From contig JBAZKQ010000001.1 in the NCBI GenBank assembly GCA_041650715.1, positions 70,945-134,944 of the forward strand: a stretch of 64,000 bases of DNA, in the 5' to 3' direction. Source of the DNA: Patescibacteria group bacterium (GTDB lineage: Bacteria > Patescibacteriota > Patescibacteriia > Patescibacteriales > UBA12465). Shown here one piece after another: positions 1,910 to 43,898 of the stretch. The stretch's first letter is position 1. The number at the start of each line of letters is the position of its first letter. The position numbers and the translations under genes are program-made. The notes beneath the pieces are model-generated. The model saw only the letters and a list, made by a program, of their open reading frames with translations, ran no database searches and was not told the DNA's origin.

Positions 1910-3511
1910 ATGGCCGAAGGCATAAATTATCTTAAAATTGGCAAAGCCACTGAATTAACAGGTAAGGACCGAAAATTATACAGATTTTTGGAAATATTAC
2001 CTGGTTTTTTGTCTATTTTTACATTAATTATTCTTGCTGTCCTCTCATATTTTAAACCGGTTTGGGTGGCCTATTTTATCATTGCCTTTGACGTTTATTG
2101 GCTTCTTTTGGTCATTTATATGGCCATTTTTTTAATTAGCTCTTATCGTAAGCTTAATCAGGGTTTAGCTACTGAATGGGCAGAAAAATGTGCCCGTTTG
2201 AAAGAAGGCCGCTTTAGCGACCCGGATTTCGAAAAAGAGCTGGCGCCGGACGCGGTGGCGCGCCAAGGCGTGCTTTGGACCGATTTGTGGCAGTTAATTG
2301 TCTTGCCGACCAGCTTTGAGAGCGCCGAAATTATTCGCAGCTGTCTGGCGGCTCTGGTAAACGATGGGTATCCAACGGAGCGCATGATTATTAATTTGGC
2401 AATGGAAGAACGAGCGGGCGATGAGGCGCATGAGCGCGCGAAAATAATTCAAGCTGAATTTGGCGATAAATTTAAACATTTTTTAATAACTTGGCATCCG
2501 GACGGAATAGTGGGTGAGCTTAAAGGCAAGGGAGCTAATCAGGCCTGGGGCATTCAAGTGGTGCGCCGAGAAATTATTGAGAAAGAAAACTTAGATCAAA
2601 CTAAAATTTTAGTTAGTGTTTTTGATATTGATACTGTGGTCGAAGCCGGCTATTTTTTTGCGCTGACTTATAAATTTTTATCCGTGAGTGATCCTTATCA
2701 TACCAGCTATCAGCCGATACCGGTCTATCATAATAATATTTGGGATTCGCCTTTTTTTTCGCGCCTGGCCGCCTCGTCTAATACTTTCTGGCAGATGATT
2801 ATGCAAATCCGCTCAGAGAGTTTGGTTACCTATTCTTCCCATTCCATGACTTATATTGCTCTACGGGAAATCGGTTTTTGGTCAACGACGATGGTCAGCG
2901 AGGATTCGCGTATTTTTTGGCATTGCCTGCTTTATTATAACGGTAATTACCGTGTCGAGCCGCTTTATTATAAAGTTTCGATGGATGTGACTCATGATCG
3001 GAGCGCTTGGCGGACGGCGAAGAGCCTATATAAGCAGCAGCGCCGCTGGGCCTGGGGTTCGGAAAATATTCCCTATCTGATTTTTAATACGTCTAAAAGA
3101 TGGCAGACGGTTGACCGTGGAAAATTAATCGGCCATATTTTTATTCAAATTTACGGCTTTTGGTCGTGGGCAACCAACGCTTTGATTATCGCGGTGATTG
3201 GCTGGTTGCCAATGCTTTTGGGCGGCAATCGTTTTAATTCAACCGTTCTTTCGGGAAACCTTCCGGCGATAACGCAGAACCTCATGAACGTCGCCATGGT
3301 CGGTTTAATTTTGTCGGCCGTCATTTCTTCGCTCTTGTTGCCGCTCCGCCCCCACAAGTATAACGCTTGGAAAAACATCCGCATGATTTTAGAGTGGGTC
3401 TTTGTCCCCTTTACTATTGTTATCTTTGGAGCCATCCCCTGTCTTGATGCTCAAATTAGATTGATGCGCGGAAAATATATGGGTTTTTGGATTACCCCGA
3501 AGTCGCGTTAA
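1910..3511 (+). CDS. Membrane-bound family-2 glycosyltransferase (processive, cellulose/chitin-synthase-like architecture)
   Basis: N- and C-terminal TM helices flank a cytoplasmic domain with a DID (DxD) motif and a QQRRWAWG (QxxRW) motif. Confidence 0.7.
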   Translation: MAEGINYLKIGKATELTGKDRKLYRFLEILPGFLSIFTLIILAVLSYFKPVWVAYFIIAFDVYWLLLVIYMAIFLISSYRKLNQGLATEWAEKCARLKEGRFSDPDFEKELAPDAVARQGVLWTDLWQLIVLPTSFESAEIIRSCLAALVNDGYPTERMIINLAMEERAGDEAHERAKIIQAEFGDKFKHFLITWHPDGIVGELKGKGANQAWGIQVVRREIIEKENLDQTKILVSVFDIDTVVEAGYFFALTYKFLSVSDPYHTSYQPIPVYHNNIWDSPFFSRLAASSNTFWQMIMQIRSESLVTYSSHSMTYIALREIGFWSTTMVSEDSRIFWHCLLYYNGNYRVEPLYYKVSMDVTHDRSAWRTAKSLYKQQRRWAWGSENIPYLIFNTSKRWQTVDRGKLIGHIFIQIYGFWSWATNALIIAVIGWLPMLLGGNRFNSTVLSGNLPAITQNLMNVAMVGLILSAVISSLLLPLRPHKYNAWKNIRMILEWVFVPFTIVIFGAIPCLDAQIRLMRGKYMGFWITPKSR

Positions 3512-7389: not shown

Positions 7390-7418
7390 TTGACATTTTC
7401 TCTATTTTTTAATACTAT
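7390..7418 (+). promoter_or_regulatory. Sigma70-type promoter for tRNA-Gln
   Basis: TTGACA (7390-7395), 17-nt spacer, TACTAT (7413-7418), 20 nt upstream of the tRNA 5' end. Confidence 0.5.
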
Positions 7419-7437: not shown

Positions 7438-7508
7438 TCGGGGATCGTCTAATGGTAGGACTCCAGGTTTTGGTCCTGGCTATCGAGGTTCGAATCCTTG
7501 TCCCCGAG
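7438..7508 (+). tRNA. trnQ: tRNA-Gln (anticodon UUG)
   Basis: Acceptor TCGGGGA/TCCCCGA (U1:A72), D-arm GTCT-AATGGTA-GGAC, anticodon arm CCAGG-TTTTGGT-CCTGG, T-arm CGAGG-TTCGAAT-CCTTG, discriminator G. No encoded CCA. Confidence 0.9.
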
Positions 7509-7510
7509 CA

Positions 7511-7729
7511 TACGAAAAAAGAAGCAGCTTAAGCTGCTTCTTTTTTCGTATACGCCTCGCAGAGGCGCGGATTCGAACAGGGCAGAAGCGAGTCTTGAGC
7601 CGCTTTAGCAAAAGCGGCGATAAGGGGAGCGTCGAACGAAGCTCCGGGGGAGCTTCGGGCGCTGACCGCGACAACGAAGCGAATGAGCGACGGCGAATTC
7701 GCTGAGGCGGAAATCCTTGTCCCCGAGCA
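7511..7729 (+). repeat. Unit 1 (219 nt) of an unclassified structured repeat ending in a tRNA-Gln 3'-end mimic
   Basis: Starts with a perfect 40-nt palindrome. Contains hairpins GCCTC-GCA-GAGGC and GCCGCTTT-AGCA-AAAGCGGC and a variable 9-bp hairpin at 7637-7657. The last 18 nt are identical to the tRNA-Gln 3' end. Confidence 0.9.
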
Positions 7730-7948
7730 TACGAAAAAAGAAGCAGCTTAAGCTGCTTCTTTTTTCGTATACGCCTCGCAGAGGCGCGGATTCGAACAGG
7801 GCAGAAGCGAGTCTTGAGCCGCTTTAACAAAAGCGGCGAAAAGGGGAGCGTAGGACGATATGCCGGGGGCATATCGGACTCTGACCGCGACAACGAAGCG
7901 AATGAGCGACGGCGAATTCGCTGAGGCGGAAATCCTTGTCCCCGAGCA
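7730..7948 (+). repeat. Unit 2 (219 nt) of the same repeat, head-to-tail with unit 1
   Basis: Outside unit positions 123-151 it differs from unit 1 at only 2 positions (98 in a hairpin loop, and 111). The variable hairpin lies at 7856-7876. Confidence 0.9.
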
Positions 7949-7955
7949 AATAGAC

Positions 7956-7981
7956 AAAAATACCACTTTCGTGGTATTTTT
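7956..7981 (+). terminator. Intrinsic (bidirectional) terminator after unit 2
   Basis: A-tract, ATACCAC-TTTC-GTGGTAT, T-tract. The sequence is unrelated to the palindrome shared by the units. Confidence 0.6.
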
Positions 7982-8004
7982 GTTATATAAATAATTCTTA
8001 TATT

Positions 8005-8502
8005 ATGAAAAAAGCACTTATCGTAATTGACGTACAAAAAGGTTTTATAAATAAATCAACAACACCCGTTATTAAGAAAATAAAAAACTATATAGTAAAA
8101 AATATAAATAATTATGATCTTATAGTTTTCACCCAATACTTTAATAGAGAGGGTAGTAATTTTATTCGAAGTTTAAAATGGCGTGGTTTTATGAATAAGA
8201 ACCAAACAGATTTGGCTGATGAAATAAAGGGATTTACTAGTAAAAAAAACTTGTTCCCTAAATACACATATAGCAGCTTTGTCGATAATAAGCTTTTTAA
8301 TTTACTCAAAAAAAATAAAATAGATCAAGTTGAGTTGTCTGGTTTTGATACGGAGAACTGCGTTTTGACTTTCGCAAGAGATGCTTTTGATCGGGGGATG
8401 TCTGTAGTTGTATTAAAAAATCTTTCGGCCAGTCATTCTATGCCTAATTTGCACAAAGCAGCCCTTGAAATCATTAAACATAACATTGGGACAATTAAGT
8501 AA
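8005..8502 (+). CDS. Isochorismatase-family cysteine hydrolase (nicotinamidase-like)
   Basis: N-terminal KALIVIDVQKGF and the C-terminal GFDTENCVLTFARDAFDRG (catalytic Cys context) are family hallmarks. The gene is visibly more AT-rich than its flanks. Confidence 0.8.
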   Translation: MKKALIVIDVQKGFINKSTTPVIKKIKNYIVKNINNYDLIVFTQYFNREGSNFIRSLKWRGFMNKNQTDLADEIKGFTSKKNLFPKYTYSSFVDNKLFNLLKKNKIDQVELSGFDTENCVLTFARDAFDRGMSVVVLKNLSASHSMPNLHKAALEIIKHNIGTIK

Positions 8503-8505
8503 ATA

Positions 8506-8538
8506 GTTGCGTTCCAACTATATCCCAGTCCCCGAGCA
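8506..8538 (+). other. Degenerate copy of the tRNA-Gln 3' end (att-like remnant) immediately before unit 3
   Basis: GTTGCGTTCCAACTATATCCCAGTCCCCGAGCA: the last 11 nt are identical to the tRNA and unit 3' ends, and the upstream part resembles a decayed T-arm. Confidence 0.5.
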
Positions 8539-8755
8539 TACGAAAAAAGAAGCAGCTTAAGCTGCTTCTTTTTTCGTATACGCCTCGTAGAGGCGCGGAT
8601 TCGAACAGGGCAGAAGCGAGTCTTGAGCCGCTTTAGCAAAAGCGGCGAAAAGGGGAGCGTCGCTAAGCATCCGGGGGATGCTTGGCGCTGACCGCGACAA
8701 CGAAGCGAATGAGCGACGGCGAATTCGCTGAGGCGGAAATCCTTGTCCCCGAACA
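8539..8755 (+). repeat. Unit 3 (217 nt) of the structured repeat
   Basis: Same 40-nt palindrome and scaffold. Differences outside the variable window: position 50 (hairpin loop), position 111, and the third-from-last base (GAGCA>GAACA). The variable hairpin lies at 8664-8684. Confidence 0.9.
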
Positions 8756-8761
8756 TTGAAG

Positions 8762-8787
8762 AAAAATGAGCCGAAAGGCTCATTTTT
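8762..8787 (+). terminator. Intrinsic terminator after unit 3
   Basis: ATGAGCC-GAAA-GGCTCAT followed by TTTTTGTTGTTTT. Confidence 0.6.
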
Positions 8788-8817
8788 GTTGTTTTAAGAA
8801 TATGTTATAATGTAGCT

Positions 8818-41022: not shown

Positions 41023-41679
41023 ATGAAATTACTCCTAACCTCTAACGGTCTTTCCAATCAGTCGATTGCTAACGCTTTATTTGAATTGACTGGTAAGCCG
41101 GCGTCAGAGACCACGCTTGTTTTTATACCGACCGCGATGAACGTCGCTCGCGGAAGCAAGGACTGGTTTATTAATGATCTTTATAATATCAAAAAGCAGG
41201 GATTTAAATTTATTGACATCGTCGATATTTCCGCACTTCCGAAAGAAGTTTGGTTGCCAAAGATAGAAAGTGGAGACGTTTTATTTTTTTCGGGAGGAAA
41301 CAATTATCACTTGATGTATTGGCTAAAAGAGTCGGGATTATTTGAGTTATTGCCTGAATTATTAAAAACCAGAGTTTACGCCGGAATCAGTGCCGGGAGC
41401 ATAGTAACGAACCCGAGTTTAGCTTATTCTAATAGTGACAAGAAGGAATATTACGAGAATCATTTCGGTTATAAAGACGACACAGCTTTAAATTTTGTCG
41501 ATTTTTATACTTTTCCTCATTTTAACTCTCCGAAACATTTAGCTTCCAGTAGAGAAAACTTGGAGAAGACCGCCAAAGAAACCGGGAAAGCTGTTTATGG
41601 TCTTGATGATGAGTCGGCCTTGAAAGTCGTGGACGGCGGGGTCACGGTAATTACTGAAGGGGATTATTTAAAATTATAG
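41023..41679 (+). CDS. Peptidase S51 (dipeptidase E-like)
   Basis: LLLTSNG..., FFSGGNNYHL and YAGISAGS (nucleophile Ser). Confidence 0.75.
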   Translation: MKLLLTSNGLSNQSIANALFELTGKPASETTLVFIPTAMNVARGSKDWFINDLYNIKKQGFKFIDIVDISALPKEVWLPKIESGDVLFFSGGNNYHLMYWLKESGLFELLPELLKTRVYAGISAGSIVTNPSLAYSNSDKKEYYENHFGYKDDTALNFVDFYTFPHFNSPKHLASSRENLEKTAKETGKAVYGLDDESALKVVDGGVTVITEGDYLKL

Positions 41680-41741
41680 GGATATCAAGAAGCCTGGGGT
41701 ATAGGGATTATCAAAAAAATGATAATTTAATTGCTAATTTT

Positions 41742-42083
41742 ATGAAAATCATTCACAAAGAACAGACAAAAAGAGTTGCAAATGGTAAAAATTGCATCGC
41801 CGTGGAATATCCCTTGGGAGATGAAGATATTAACGGCTCTATTATAGAATTGACCGGGAGAGAACCGGATACCGGAGGAGCTATGAATAGGGAATGCAAA
41901 GAGTTGGCCTATATCATTCACGGCTCAGGTAAGGTTACGATTGATGATAGGATCATCGCCTTGTCTCCGGGCGATTTGGTTTTAATAGAATCAGGAGAAA
42001 AATTTTTTTGGGAGGGGAACATGACGATGTTTATGCCCTGCACTCCGGCTTGGCGGCCCAATCAATATATAAAAGTAGAATAG
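41742..42083 (+). CDS. Cupin-domain protein
   Basis: 113 aa. Pattern ELAYIIHGSGKVTIDD...GDLVLIESGEKFFWEG. Confidence 0.6.
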   Translation: MKIIHKEQTKRVANGKNCIAVEYPLGDEDINGSIIELTGREPDTGGAMNRECKELAYIIHGSGKVTIDDRIIALSPGDLVLIESGEKFFWEGNMTMFMPCTPAWRPNQYIKVE

Positions 42084-42134
42084 CCATGAGAGTTTTTACA
42101 AAGCTATATCTCATATAAAATAATAAGCATATTT

Positions 42135-42581
42135 ATGAAATCTCAATTTGTTATTGCATCGTTTGGTTTTATTTTCGATGAGAATAATAGAATTTTACTC
42201 TGCCACCGCCGTGATTATGATTTATGGAATTTACCAGGCGGGACAATGGAACTTGGAGAATCTCCTTGGGAATGTGTTGTGCGGGAAGTTAAAGAAGAAA
42301 CAGGCCTGGAAGTAGAAATATCAAAACTGGCTGGAATATATAATAAGCCAGACAAGGGGGCCTTAGCCTTTTCTTTTATCTGTAAGGTTGTTGGTGGCCA
42401 ATTAACCCTGAATGAAGAAGCCGACAAAATTGAATACTTTGGAATCGAAGAAATCCCAGCTAATATTTCTCAGAAACAAGTTGCCAGAATACGTGACGCC
42501 CTAAAAGAAAAAGAGTTAGTACTAAAAAATCAAACCGGTAAGGGCGCGATTGAGCTAATCCAAGAAAGTAATAAGAAATAA
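42135..42581 (+). CDS. NUDIX hydrolase
   Basis: Nudix box GGTMELGESPWECVVREVKEETGL. Confidence 0.85.
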   Translation: MKSQFVIASFGFIFDENNRILLCHRRDYDLWNLPGGTMELGESPWECVVREVKEETGLEVEISKLAGIYNKPDKGALAFSFICKVVGGQLTLNEEADKIEYFGIEEIPANISQKQVARIRDALKEKELVLKNQTGKGAIELIQESNKK

Positions 42582-42594
42582 TTAATAACAAGCT

Positions 42595-43332
42595 ATGAAA
42601 CTAATTTCTTTAAATGTTTGGTGCGGAATTAAATATGAAGCATTAATAAAGTTTCTTGAACTTCAACTAAAAGACACCGACATTTTTTGTTTCCAGGAAG
42701 TGAGAAATGGTGAGTATCTAAACCAAGAGGCGGGTCCCGAAGAAAGGACCAATCTCTTCAAAGACTTAGAGGGCGCGTTACCTGACTTTACGGGGTATTT
42801 CGCGGAGATGGTCCCAGGCGTTGGTATGGCAACTTTTATTCGCAATAATATTAAAGTAGAAAAAGTAGAACCGGTAGTAATGTTTACCATAGATGAAATT
42901 AAGCACTTGAAAATTCCGGTCGGATTTCGTCATTACCCGCGCCTAATGCAATCAATTTATTTGCAAAACAATAATTTAATTGTCCATAATTTTCACGGTA
43001 TTCCCGGCAATTCTAAGCAAGACACGCCGGAAAGAGATATCCAAACAAATCGTTTGCTGAAAATTATTAATAGTAGCATTGCCCCTCAAATTATAGTCGG
43101 TGACTTTAATTTAGATATGAACACGGAGGCGATTTCAAGATTGGGTCAGAAGATGAAAAATTTAGTTAAGGAAGGCGGATTTAAGACGACAAGAAATGCA
43201 AATTATAATAATATTGAAGCGTTGCCTTATGCCGACTATGCTTTTGTAACGGAGAATCTTAAAATTGATAAGTTTGAAGTTTTGCCGGATGAAGTATCGG
43301 ATCATCTTGCACTATCTTTGAATTTTACGTAG
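42595..43332 (+). CDS. Endonuclease/exonuclease/phosphatase (EEP) family protein
   Basis: FCFQEV, VGDFNLD and SDHLAL motifs. Confidence 0.75.
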   Translation: MKLISLNVWCGIKYEALIKFLELQLKDTDIFCFQEVRNGEYLNQEAGPEERTNLFKDLEGALPDFTGYFAEMVPGVGMATFIRNNIKVEKVEPVVMFTIDEIKHLKIPVGFRHYPRLMQSIYLQNNNLIVHNFHGIPGNSKQDTPERDIQTNRLLKIINSSIAPQIIVGDFNLDMNTEAISRLGQKMKNLVKEGGFKTTRNANYNNIEALPYADYAFVTENLKIDKFEVLPDEVSDHLALSLNFT

Positions 43333-43403
43333 ATTATTAGTTAATATCGATTAATAACGCATTGCTCCCGCTGCTCATTGTGGTTGAATGATATAAAATA
43401 GAT

Positions 43404-43898
43404 ATGAATTCGCAGATTGAAACGACAATTGTCATCAAAGACTTAGTCAGAGACATCAAGAGTCCCTTAACCATAGACTCGCTTGTTAGGATTAGGGATC
43501 TAATGTATTCAAAAATAGAAATTCGTCCCTATGACAATACGACGAAAGAATATGAAAAAGAAATAAGATGGAAAAGGACGGCCAGTGAAATTTTGGAAGA
43601 CGCCTATGTTTATAGTGGCAAGGCCTGCACAGATTTAACGATTTTGTTTATTGCTTTGTGCAAGGCGCTTGGTCTGAAAACAAATTTTGTTAAAGTGATG
43701 AATGATAAGTCGGTCCATTCTGTAGCTGAGATTAAATTGAATGACGGCTGGTATATATTTGACGTCGCAATGAAAAGTATCCCGGTCAAAGGTTCAATCA
43801 CCAATAAAAAGCCTTATGGGGAGTGGATATTATGGAAAAAGGGCAGAGACGCTTGGGATTTAGGGCTGACAGAATTTGAAAGTATTTCCAAAATTTAG
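43404..43898 (+). CDS. Transglutaminase-like cysteine protease-fold protein
   Basis: GKACTDLTILFIALCKALGL...HSVAEIKL..GWYIFDV (Cys-His-Asp order). TGaTATAAA lies 6 nt upstream of the ATG. Confidence 0.7.
   Translation: MNSQIETTIVIKDLVRDIKSPLTIDSLVRIRDLMYSKIEIRPYDNTTKEYEKEIRWKRTASEILEDAYVYSGKACTDLTILFIALCKALGLKTNFVKVMNDKSVHSVAEIKLNDGWYIFDVAMKSIPVKGSITNKKPYGEWILWKKGRDAWDLGLTEFESISKI

Follow-up and report, generated by a model that had tools for sequence, protein, structure and literature searches.

What are the near-identical repeats of about 219 bp that follow the tRNA-Gln(UUG) gene of a Patescibacteria bacterium (contig JBAZKQ010000001.1), and why does each of them end in a copy of the 3′ end of this tRNA? 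We addressed this question in a 64-kb stretch of the contig, hereafter the window, whose positions serve as coordinates throughout; L-numbers designate the other loci or contigs compared with it. A preliminary description had reported three such units and proposed that they encode a tRNA-like RNA. We favor, with a probability of about one half, a different reading: the unit is a mobile but non-autonomous module, free of coding sequence, within a cassette array located at the 3′ end of tRNA-Gln in Falkowbacteria-like Patescibacteria. It would comprise three parts: a palindromic terminator, which would re-terminate whatever lies upstream and so replace the tRNA terminator; a core of ~160 nt, folding on the plus strand into four hairpins (H1, H2, P3, and H4); and a copy of the last 15–18 nt of the local tRNA-Gln, which would result from site-specific insertion or from exchange between copies of the attachment (att) site. 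The protein-coding cassettes of these arrays bear the tRNA 3′ end in an attP-type form and are most likely moved by a large serine recombinase acting in trans, the units being inserted or duplicated at the same junction as these open reading frame (ORF) cassettes. Transcription of the core might begin at a weak −10 element in the T-tract or reach it as read-through of transcripts initiated at the tRNA promoter; the next terminator would end it.

The tRNA gene and the three units lie where the preliminary description had placed them. The features of the locus are listed below, with bit scores given by R1, a covariance model of the unit used to score candidate copies.

7390–7418, plus strand: sigma-70-type promoter of tRNA-Gln (TTGACA, 17 nt, TACTAT)
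7438–7509, plus strand: tRNA-Gln(UUG), anchor of the array; ARAGORN and Rfam agree (57.7 bits)
7488–7510, plus strand: attB-type half-site (T-loop heptamer GTTCGAA, 9 nt, CCGAGC(A)), with the junction directly after it
7511–7729: unit 1 (U1), whole
7511–7550, no strand: palindrome at the left end of U1, perfect, 40 nt (A-tract, stem, T-tract)
7552–7729, plus strand: U1 core and tRNA-derived tail (7712–7729); R1, 211.1 bits
7629–7662, plus strand: variable hairpin P3 of U1, allele GAAGCUCC-GGG-GGAGCUUC
7730–7948: unit 2 (U2), whole
7730–7769, no strand: palindrome at the left end of U2, perfect, 40 nt
7771–7948, plus strand: U2 core and tail (7931–7948); R1, 208.3 bits
7848–7881, plus strand: P3 of U2, allele GAUAUGCC-GGG-GGCAUAUC
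7949–8538, plus strand: protein-coding cassette (PF00857 ORF; nhmmer E = 4e-6)
7949–7992, plus strand: 5′ module of the cassette with its terminator, a recurrent module
8005–8502, plus strand: isochorismatase-family ORF, 165 aa (PF00857)
8511–8538, plus strand: attP-type half-site of the ORF cassette (GTTCCAA, 14 nt, CCGAGC, A)
8539–8755: unit 3 (U3), whole
8539–8578, no strand: palindrome at the left end of U3, perfect, 40 nt
8580–8755, plus strand: U3 core and tail (8738–8755; GAGCA changed to GAACA); R1, 198.2 bits
8657–8688, plus strand: P3 of U3, allele UAAGCAUCC-GGG-GGAUGCUUG
8759–8790, plus strand: ancestral-flank terminator TTGAAGAAAAATGAGCCGA, found also after the single unit of L101

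Tandem Repeats Finder detected 2.1 copies of a 219-nt period between 7493 and 7948 (94% matches, score 814), and the mean column identity in the alignment of the three window units is 96%. As first described, the copies are nearly identical outside a stretch of ~29 nt, which corresponds to P3; only columns 50, 98, 111, and 217 vary elsewhere, all of them in loops, a junction, or the tail. The earlier observation that the units end with the last 18 nt of the tRNA was likewise accurate, including the single substitution in U3. The 11-mer GTCCCCGAGCA is found on the plus strand at 7500, 7719, 7938, 8528, and 8745 (the last with one mismatch) for a chance expectation of 0.46, and five copies were reached in none of 100 shuffles. 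The tRNA-end copy at 8528–8538 had been overlooked. As it closes the segment 7949–8538, the layout of the locus is tRNA/U1/U2/ORF cassette/U3/flank. The units have a GC content of 55–57% and the flanks of ~42%, and that of the 590-nt segment 7949–8538 is 24–35%. The whole unit folds with a z score of −6.1 relative to shuffled sequence. An intrinsic terminator in plus orientation follows each unit. The terminator hairpins after U2 (7954–7983) and U3 (8762–8787) do differ, as had been noted, but are explained otherwise than by the proposed maintenance of an RNA end: the former belongs to the 5′ module of the next cassette and the latter to the ancestral flank. A 185-aa minus-strand ORF spanning U1 and U2 (7480–8037) is spurious: it arises from the GC-rich repeat and does not represent a gene.

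Homologues were sought with an 18-mer in the GTDB representative genomes and with two anchors in JGI metagenomes, and further copies were found by tracing neighbouring proteins onto other contigs. R1 recognized 23 copies (25–215 bits) on Patescibacteria contigs, all in arrays linked to tRNA-Gln: three in the window, one in L108, which belongs to the same genome, two each in L099, L119, and L120, and one each in L009, L040, L079, L049, L078, L085, L075, L097, L098, L100, L101, L107, and L110. R1 gave no further match in the window or in the control loci. True homologues were restricted to Patescibacteria/Falkowbacteria contigs, the other matches of the scans being due to chance in GC-rich genomes, and no unit was found in IMG/VR (pattern and protein scans), among INPHARED phages, or among PLSDB plasmids. 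The copies keep the hairpins and not just the 18-nt end. Their orientation is that of the tRNA in 23 of 23 cases, and the same architecture is present in independent ENA, NCBI, JGI, and Logan assemblies.

According to the sequence of their body, the units fall into type A (window, L108, L009, L040/L079, L049, L078, L097, L098, L100, L107, and L075/L085), type A′ (L099, L101, L119, and L110), type B (L078, a divergent unit not counted among the 23 copies), and type C (L120). All types share a leading palindrome, whose sequence is unrelated between genomes, a 5′ motif GGATTCGAAC (GGGTTCGAAC in L110), the tRNA-derived tail, and several RAGCG repeats. A terminal hairpin is likewise common to all types; it is followed by GAGG(G)CGGAAAT, for which type B has the T-arm-like GGTTCGCAAA. 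All type-A copies, that of L040 included, have the same 55-nt 3′ half. The RAGCG repeats, which could bind a protein, occur four to five times on the plus strand and at most once on the minus strand in types A, A′, B, and C (three vs. zero in L110); relative to dinucleotide shuffles, they are enriched roughly 2-fold, with p about 0.02–0.04 for each of the four main types and no significance in L110.

We also noticed several irregular sequences. At L120:12440–12583, an internally deleted unit without H2 and P3 ends in the cassette-type CCCAACCTCGGAGCC and not in the local tRNA end. A GC-rich palindrome, CTGCCTGCCTGCCGGCAGGCAGGCAGG, lies within the pseudo-T arm of one unit (L009, reverse complement, 330–357), and a shorter version of it within a partial 5′ duplication of tRNA-Gln (L099, reverse complement, 3183–3202); it may be a tiny mobile palindrome. 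Many contigs carrying close FtsX homologues are only 1–3 kb long (as seen in the list of these homologues and in L002), which suggests that the repeated units commonly interrupt assemblies immediately after FtsX/tRNA-Gln.

Is the core a conserved structure? Covariation was measured on a model-guided alignment of 16 copies. Standard pairs are found in 95% of the cells, and both sides have changed in 24 of the 45 pairs; none of 500 shuffles equalled these values. Sliding the partners by one to three columns lowers pairing to 34–46%. This support covers H1, H2, both parts of P3, and H4, in agreement with the earlier view of a structured, conserved element. The hairpins of the GC-rich core are joined by nearly invariant strands (GGAUUCGAACAGGG, AGCGA, CGACAACGAA, and UGAGGCGGAAAU). 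Because the covarying helices contain 14 G.U and no A.C pairs, the folded molecule is the plus strand, as initially assumed, in the form of either RNA or plus-strand single-stranded DNA (ssDNA). The compensatory changes and the strand-specific wobble are those of conserved structured RNAs in general. The triloops of H1 are of the C(GNA)G type, including GCGAAGC in L078, a sequence that forms an unusually stable DNA mini-hairpin. In H2, the loop AGCA is replaced by the GNRA tetraloop GGAA in L097 and L107. A closing helix, P1, between the 5′ motif and the tail (UUCG/CGAG and ACAGGG/CCUUGU) is 96% paired with zero double changes; it is broken in the L108 unit (U4) and in L110. Against Rfam 15, types A and B and the L110 variant gave terminator-type chance matches only, and the preliminary description had likewise recognized no known RNA family. 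The structural conservation is real and new, and belongs to no curated family.

The units also move. Their similarity is decoupled from host relatedness, as judged from FtsX nucleotide identity with the window. L040, with an FtsX identity of 71.5%, has a unit 95.6% identical to U2, whereas the unit of L119, a closer relative by FtsX (75.0%), is of type A′ and only 65.5% identical; for L120, the values are 71.2% for FtsX and 56.3% for its type C unit. We conclude from this decoupling that the units move horizontally. One and the same syntenic position is taken by units of types A, A′, and C in genomes whose FtsX is 80–86% identical to that of the window, and the syntenic tRNA of L118, L121, and L122 is not followed by a unit. 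P3 comes in a few alleles that recur in distant genomes, even across body types: AAGCTC in U1, L097, and L098; ATATGC in U2, L009, L040, L079, L107, and L099b; AAGCAT in U3 and L101; and a CTAAAGCTC-like allele in U4, L075, and L085. Outside P3, the units are homogenized within a genome. The neutral explanation is that gene conversion homogenizes the flanks and cannot cross the 29-nt heterology; P3 could also have a role in specificity.

In the tails of the units, the last 15–18 nt match the local tRNA-Gln variant at eight of eight loci, including both loci of the window genome. The fourth unit of this genome, U4 (L108:5283–5458, 182.8 bits), lies behind tRNA-Gln(CUG) at L108:5170–5241 and ends in CCCTATCCCCGAGC like its own tRNA, just as U1–U3 end in CCTTGTCCCCGAGC like theirs, and the four cores are nearly identical. 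In L110, the tail corresponds to a different tRNA end, and the core shows no compensating change. As it follows the local tRNA variant, the tail is an attachment-site duplication and not a selected RNA end. In L078, the flank ACAAAATCAGGC..TTTTAATATTAGA comes directly after the tRNA, and the same flank follows the unit in L040, L049, and L107. The unit is therefore a discrete insert. At an empty site, the tRNA would join the flank TTGAAGAAAAATGAGCC; the sequence following U3 is the ancestral flank, which L101 also has behind its single unit. An intact tRNA with direct repeats of its 3′ part after it, the arrangement typical of tRNA-associated islands, is thus found here, with five copies in the window and the empty-site-like L078.

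The units share their insertion site with protein-coding cassettes. Downstream of tRNA-Gln in L101, L079, L108, L119, and L120, we found unidirectional small accessory genes, including genes for NUDIX, glyoxalase, nitroreductase, methyltransferase, acetyltransferase, and isochorismatase proteins and a toxin–antitoxin pair. Each gene ends in a conserved site of ~28 nt, GTTCCAAC(T/C)ATATCCCA(A/G)(A/T)C(T/C)CCGAGCA, followed by a terminator palindrome. This palindrome is often the module AAT(A/G)GACAAAATACCAC...GTGGTATTTTTGTTATATAA, whose two arms are separated by a loop and which precedes unrelated genes in different genomes (window 7949–7992; L079, L101, L108, and L120); it holds a terminator and possibly a −10 element (TATAAT/TATAAA). 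The ORF cassette starts with AATAGACA, and the putative cassette-borne att site is GTTCCAACTATATCCCAGTCCCCGAGCA. In the genome of the window, the second array, behind tRNA-Gln(CUG) at L108:5170–10500 (contig position ~428.9 kb), contains U4 and four or more cassette ends of the attP type, together with another isochorismatase gene, which shares 81% identity with that of the window. The window has another series of small accessory genes at 41023–43898 (peptidase S51, NUDIX, Exo_endo_phos, and transglutaminase-like), where neither the cassette-end hidden Markov model nor R1 had a match. L116 (10001–11129), which belongs to another Patescibacteria genome of the same sample, has an isochorismatase homologue immediately behind gyrA and beside a Y1_Tnp (IS200/RAYT-like) gene; this 20-kb locus has no tRNA-Gln and no unit, and looks like a different mobility route for the same gene. 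An accessory-gene array beside a different tRNA (L114) was examined and set aside, as it has neither a repeated att motif nor a unit.

Which enzyme could move these cassettes? The cassette ends are not decaying tRNA fragments, as their derived features are common across genomes. GTTC(C/G)AA is separated from CCGAGC by 14 nt in 18 cassette ends from 10 contigs vs. 9 nt in 11 of 11 tRNA-Gln genes. The heptamer is thus shifted by exactly 5 bp, the only other spacings stemming from chance matches; this comparison covers the left half-sites. In serine integrases, the motif bound by the zinc-ribbon domain lies 5 bp nearer the center in attB than in attP, a difference underlying directionality (Rutherford et al., PMC3783163). 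The same 5-bp shift of the distal motif, characteristic of large serine recombinase att sites, distinguishes the ORF cassettes from the tRNAs.

Close relatives carry a candidate recombinase at the same position. We identified an element of ~5 kb, a size inferred from the end of the similarity between L118 and L122, which encodes a Resolvase/Recombinase protein of 537 aa; homologues in its family also match a zinc-ribbon domain. The element further encodes a REP_ORF2-G2P rolling-circle replication protein (Rep), two ORFs of ~59 aa, and an ORF of 357 aa (L118:11070–15910; also L122 and L123). It is inserted exactly at the ...GAGCA end of tRNA-Gln(UUG) in L118 and L122 and of tRNA-Gln(CUG) in L121; in L123, it lies at a tRNA ending in GTTCGAATCCCACCCTGGGAGCA that was read as Asn (GUU) by eye. 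The recombinase ORFs are located on four independent contigs, at L118:10996–12620, L122:10001–11625, L121:647–2271, and L123:3872–5479. They extend into the antisense strand of the abutting tRNA, by ~61 nt in L118, L121, and L122, with an earlier stop in L123, so that the attachment junction lies inside the 3′ end of the recombinase gene; the protein is of 537 aa at tRNA-Gln and of 530 aa at the Asn-like tRNA. The similarity between L118 and L122 ends at ...TTTTTTTGTATAGACA, and a type I restriction–modification system comes next in L122. Taken together, the 5-bp geometry and the co-located recombinase elements make a trans-acting large serine recombinase the most likely engine of the arrays.

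Two attempts to complete the attachment sites did not succeed. Right half-sites deduced from the sequence after the junction are A-rich (AATA.ACAAAA) and resemble the reverse complement of the distal end of the recombinase element; as these stretches are also the A-tract arms of terminators, they were not counted as evidence. A spacing in which the palindrome and H1 are looped out, placing an inverted heptamer at an attB-type distance, gave numbers inconsistent between genomes.

Several observations weigh against the mobile-module interpretation. No recombinase is encoded by the 35 window ORFs scanned, in line with the preliminary description, or in the gene table of the 20-kb L108 array. The distal end of the recombinase element (...TTTTTTTGTATAGACA) is unlike the cassette ends and lacks the heptamer. 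The unit end has attB-type spacing with a mutated heptamer (GCGGAAA), and no heptamer at the attP position; it is therefore no obvious attP or attB half-site, although its proximal part is identical to the tRNA. A crossover at the central dinucleotide alone would not copy 15–18 nt of the local tRNA, and the tail requires something else: gene conversion, a crossover placed in the T-loop, or unequal exchange among att copies. As for transcription, the sigma-70 scan near the units gave the tRNA promoter (7390–7418) as the only good match, confirming the earlier failure to see a promoter inside the units, and a strong palindromic terminator stands ahead of every unit. By inspection only, a TATTTT-like hexamer is present 20–26 nt upstream of the core in all types. 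We nevertheless favor the core as a small structured RNA gene, either cargo or a cis-acting part, on the basis of its conserved unpaired strands, the GNRA substitution in H2, and the terminator after every copy; on this view, the core would be transcribed and act as an RNA.

The missing promoter and the preceding terminator keep alive a role of the core as folded ssDNA, either a recombination or landing site, comparable to attC or to the folded attP of the CTX phage, or another strand-specific cis signal, akin to a single-strand origin or an origin of transfer, serving cassettes transferred as single strands. We regard this as rather unlikely, with several features in its favor. Terminators stand on both sides of the core; the folding is strand-specific, and G.T pairs are tolerated in DNA too; the C(GNA)G triloops of H1 include GCGAAGC; and GC skew is positive on the plus strand. 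The 5′ motif GGATTCGAAC reproduces the T-loop heptamer in exactly inverted form, and its region, by pairing with the att tail in P1, would rebuild a duplex half-site. Moreover, the recombinase elements at the same tRNA encode a Rep of the filamentous-phage gene II type. However, P1 is disrupted in U4 and L110 and lacks compensatory changes, the Rep/recombinase elements contain no unit, and the viral and plasmid collections yielded no unit. The GGAA tetraloop of L097 and L107 also speaks against it, as does the position of the invariant nucleotides, mostly in unpaired joining strands, which is typical of RNA tertiary cores and not of protein-bound duplex DNA. Double-stranded DNA is what a third possibility requires, namely that the unit is the bare attP of a lambda-type tyrosine integrase, a circulating, cargo-less mini-element in which the tRNA identity block would be the core, flanked by arms of ~150 and 60 bp with repeated arm-type sites. 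A complete attP is about as large as the ~219-bp unit, and this hypothesis accounts for the identity of the tail with the local tRNA; the strand bias of RAGCG also speaks for it. It is also consistent with the 18-nt identity block of the unit starting in the T-loop, the classical pattern of tyrosine integrases targeting tRNAs according to the Islander database of tRNA/tmRNA islands (PMC4383910). It leaves the covariation of the hairpins and the 14:0 G.U asymmetry unexplained, the RAGCG enrichment is modest, and no tyrosine integrase was found in the roughly 200 kb of array context examined, all of which makes it improbable.

Little probability also attaches to the unit being a resident, vertically inherited small-RNA gene that was passively duplicated by insertion of neighbouring islands. 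Such a gene would fit with the unit lying directly after tRNA-Gln at most loci and with units flanking a cassette as long direct repeats (L119; U2-cassette-U3), but not with the decoupling of unit type and identity from host relatedness, the three types at one syntenic site, the direct joining of tRNA and flank in L078, or the unit-free L118, L121, and L122. The tRNA-like RNA of the preliminary description, which would be recognized by RNase P, RNase Z, or the CCA-adding enzyme and have terminators maintained past its end, now appears highly improbable. In the window genome, GGGGA at unit positions 114–118 can indeed pair with UCCCC, UGAGG/CCUUG keeps the T-stem, and the tip of P3 (CCGGGGG) resembles the 5′ acceptor strand of a tRNA. 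The 5′ partner is, however, AGUGA in L099a, L101, and L119, AGCGA in L099b, and GGAGA in L097, and the UCCCC strand stays fixed; the tail follows the local tRNA, with no compensation in L110; the T-loop is altered to CGGAAAU; no tRNA or tmRNA (transfer-messenger RNA) model matches, and ARAGORN and RF00005, the Rfam tRNA model, detect the true tRNA only. Finally, the frequent breaking of contigs near the locus could evoke meaningless scars or assembly artefacts of tRNA-adjacent repeats. This is scarcely credible given the agreement of the ENA, NCBI, JGI, and Logan assemblies, the strong covariation, and the 55-nt 3′ half shared by all type-A copies, even by L040 with its FtsX identity of 71.5%.

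We compared the unit with other known elements and rejected them. For a tmRNA, GGAUUCGAAC resembles the D-loop analogue and CGACAACGAA the start of the tag; the order of the elements is wrong, the frames after CGACAACGAA end differently in each type upon inspection of the alignment, and ARAGORN finds no tmRNA in the window. A hammerhead or other self-cleaving ribozyme (CUGAGG..GAAA) would lack stem II and has no Rfam match. Riboswitches were dismissed because the genes downstream are variable or, in L040, oppositely oriented and no promoter lies upstream, and a tRNA-primed reverse-transcription site because the repeat is identical, not complementary, to the tRNA end. Hypermutation of P3, as by a diversity-generating retroelement, is contradicted by changes that are not adenine-specific and alleles that recur in distant genomes. 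IS110 bridge RNAs and TnpB/IscB guide RNAs are of similar size (~177 nt), but the variable part of the unit is a perfect stem without internal loops and no such protein gene is adjacent. IS91/HUH rolling-circle insertion at GTTC/CTTG does not fit the boundaries, and a Xer/dif-type module does not fit two separate loci without dif-like symmetry. An integron attC is an imperfect palindrome of 57–141 nt (RYYYAAC...GTTRRRY, boxes checked by eye) and the unit a branched fold of four hairpins; the context tables contain no Pfam match to IntI or a tyrosine recombinase. A miniature inverted-repeat transposable element or insertion sequence is at odds with the single orientation of 23 of 23 copies, the lack of terminal inverted repeats, and a duplication of 15–18 nt of one target.

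Among known systems, staphylococcal cassette chromosome (SCC) islands rely on the Ccr large serine recombinases, include pseudo-SCC cassettes without ccr, and accrete in tandem at the 3′ end of rlmH. As here, the 3′ end of one conserved gene is targeted and repeated at each junction, and many cassettes lack a recombinase; they are served in trans by one of the large serine type, as we propose for the present arrays. The arrays differ by their targets, two tRNA-Gln isoacceptor genes and not rlmH, by their candidate phyla radiation (CPR)/Patescibacteria host, and by their cassettes of 0.2–2 kb, one of which, recurrent, is a non-coding structured element. They share with chromosomal integrons unidirectional small accessory and toxin–antitoxin cassettes, each with a 3′ recombination site, the existence of non-coding cassettes, and a strand-specific folded element tied to the cassettes. 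In contrast with integrons, IntI and attI are absent, the sites derive from a tRNA and are not R″-L″/L′-R′ palindromes, the cassettes have their own terminators and probably their own promoters, and the ~160-nt core, unlike attC, has conserved unpaired strands. The core is reminiscent of ROOL, GOLLD, and raiA RNAs: a GC-rich, covarying multi-helix structure with conserved junctions in an AT-rich genome, tRNA-adjacent, followed by a terminator, and without assigned function. It is much smaller and matches nothing in Rfam 15 by sequence or structure, and the unit is multi-copy within a genome, with one hairpin that can be exchanged and an att site physically joined to it. Islander-type islands and the tycheposons of Prochlorococcus also show an intact tRNA followed by elements parted by partial tRNA copies, newcomers that push older elements outward, remnants, and integrase-less satellites. 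Tycheposons, however, are kilobases long, use tyrosine recombinases, and contain replication modules (bioRxiv 10.1101/2020.12.28.424599), whereas the site geometry here points to a serine recombinase and the cassette ends are a conserved derived site with a heptamer shifted by 5 bp. The closest parallel to this geometry is that of the serine integrases A118/LI, Bxb1, and phiC31, with a distal motif of 7–9 bp located 5 bp nearer the center in attB and similar proximal parts (PMC3783163). The parallel is incomplete in that the recombinase element's own attP left arm lacks the heptamer and the comparison is one of left half-sites.

A bolder extension of the mobile-module interpretation, which we consider distinctly unlikely, is that of an integron-like cassette system running on a large serine recombinase and docking at tRNA-Gln, with the unit as its dedicated cis-acting platform. 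Folded in a strand-specific manner as RNA or ssDNA, the unit would provide the tRNA with a terminator again and regenerate a half-site of the tRNA type, keeping the locus accessible to additional cassettes. It would then amount to a portable attB or to a giant counterpart of attC; alternatively, it would supply an RNA cofactor or guide that recognizes the T-loop of the target through GGAUUCGAAC.

Accessory-gene exchange in the tiny genomes of CPR/Patescibacteria is poorly understood. Here, the two tRNA-Gln genes of a single 758-kb genome each anchor an array of miniature cassettes, with functions that include hydrolases, NUDIX enzymes, toxin–antitoxin pairs, and detoxification genes. If our interpretation is correct, these bacteria would possess a compact, integron-like path to genome plasticity based on another enzyme family. 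The non-coding element that spreads with these cassettes would be either a novel RNA class associated with mobile DNA or a hitherto undescribed type of folded recombination element, and serine integrases with short tRNA-derived sites could be of interest for genome engineering.

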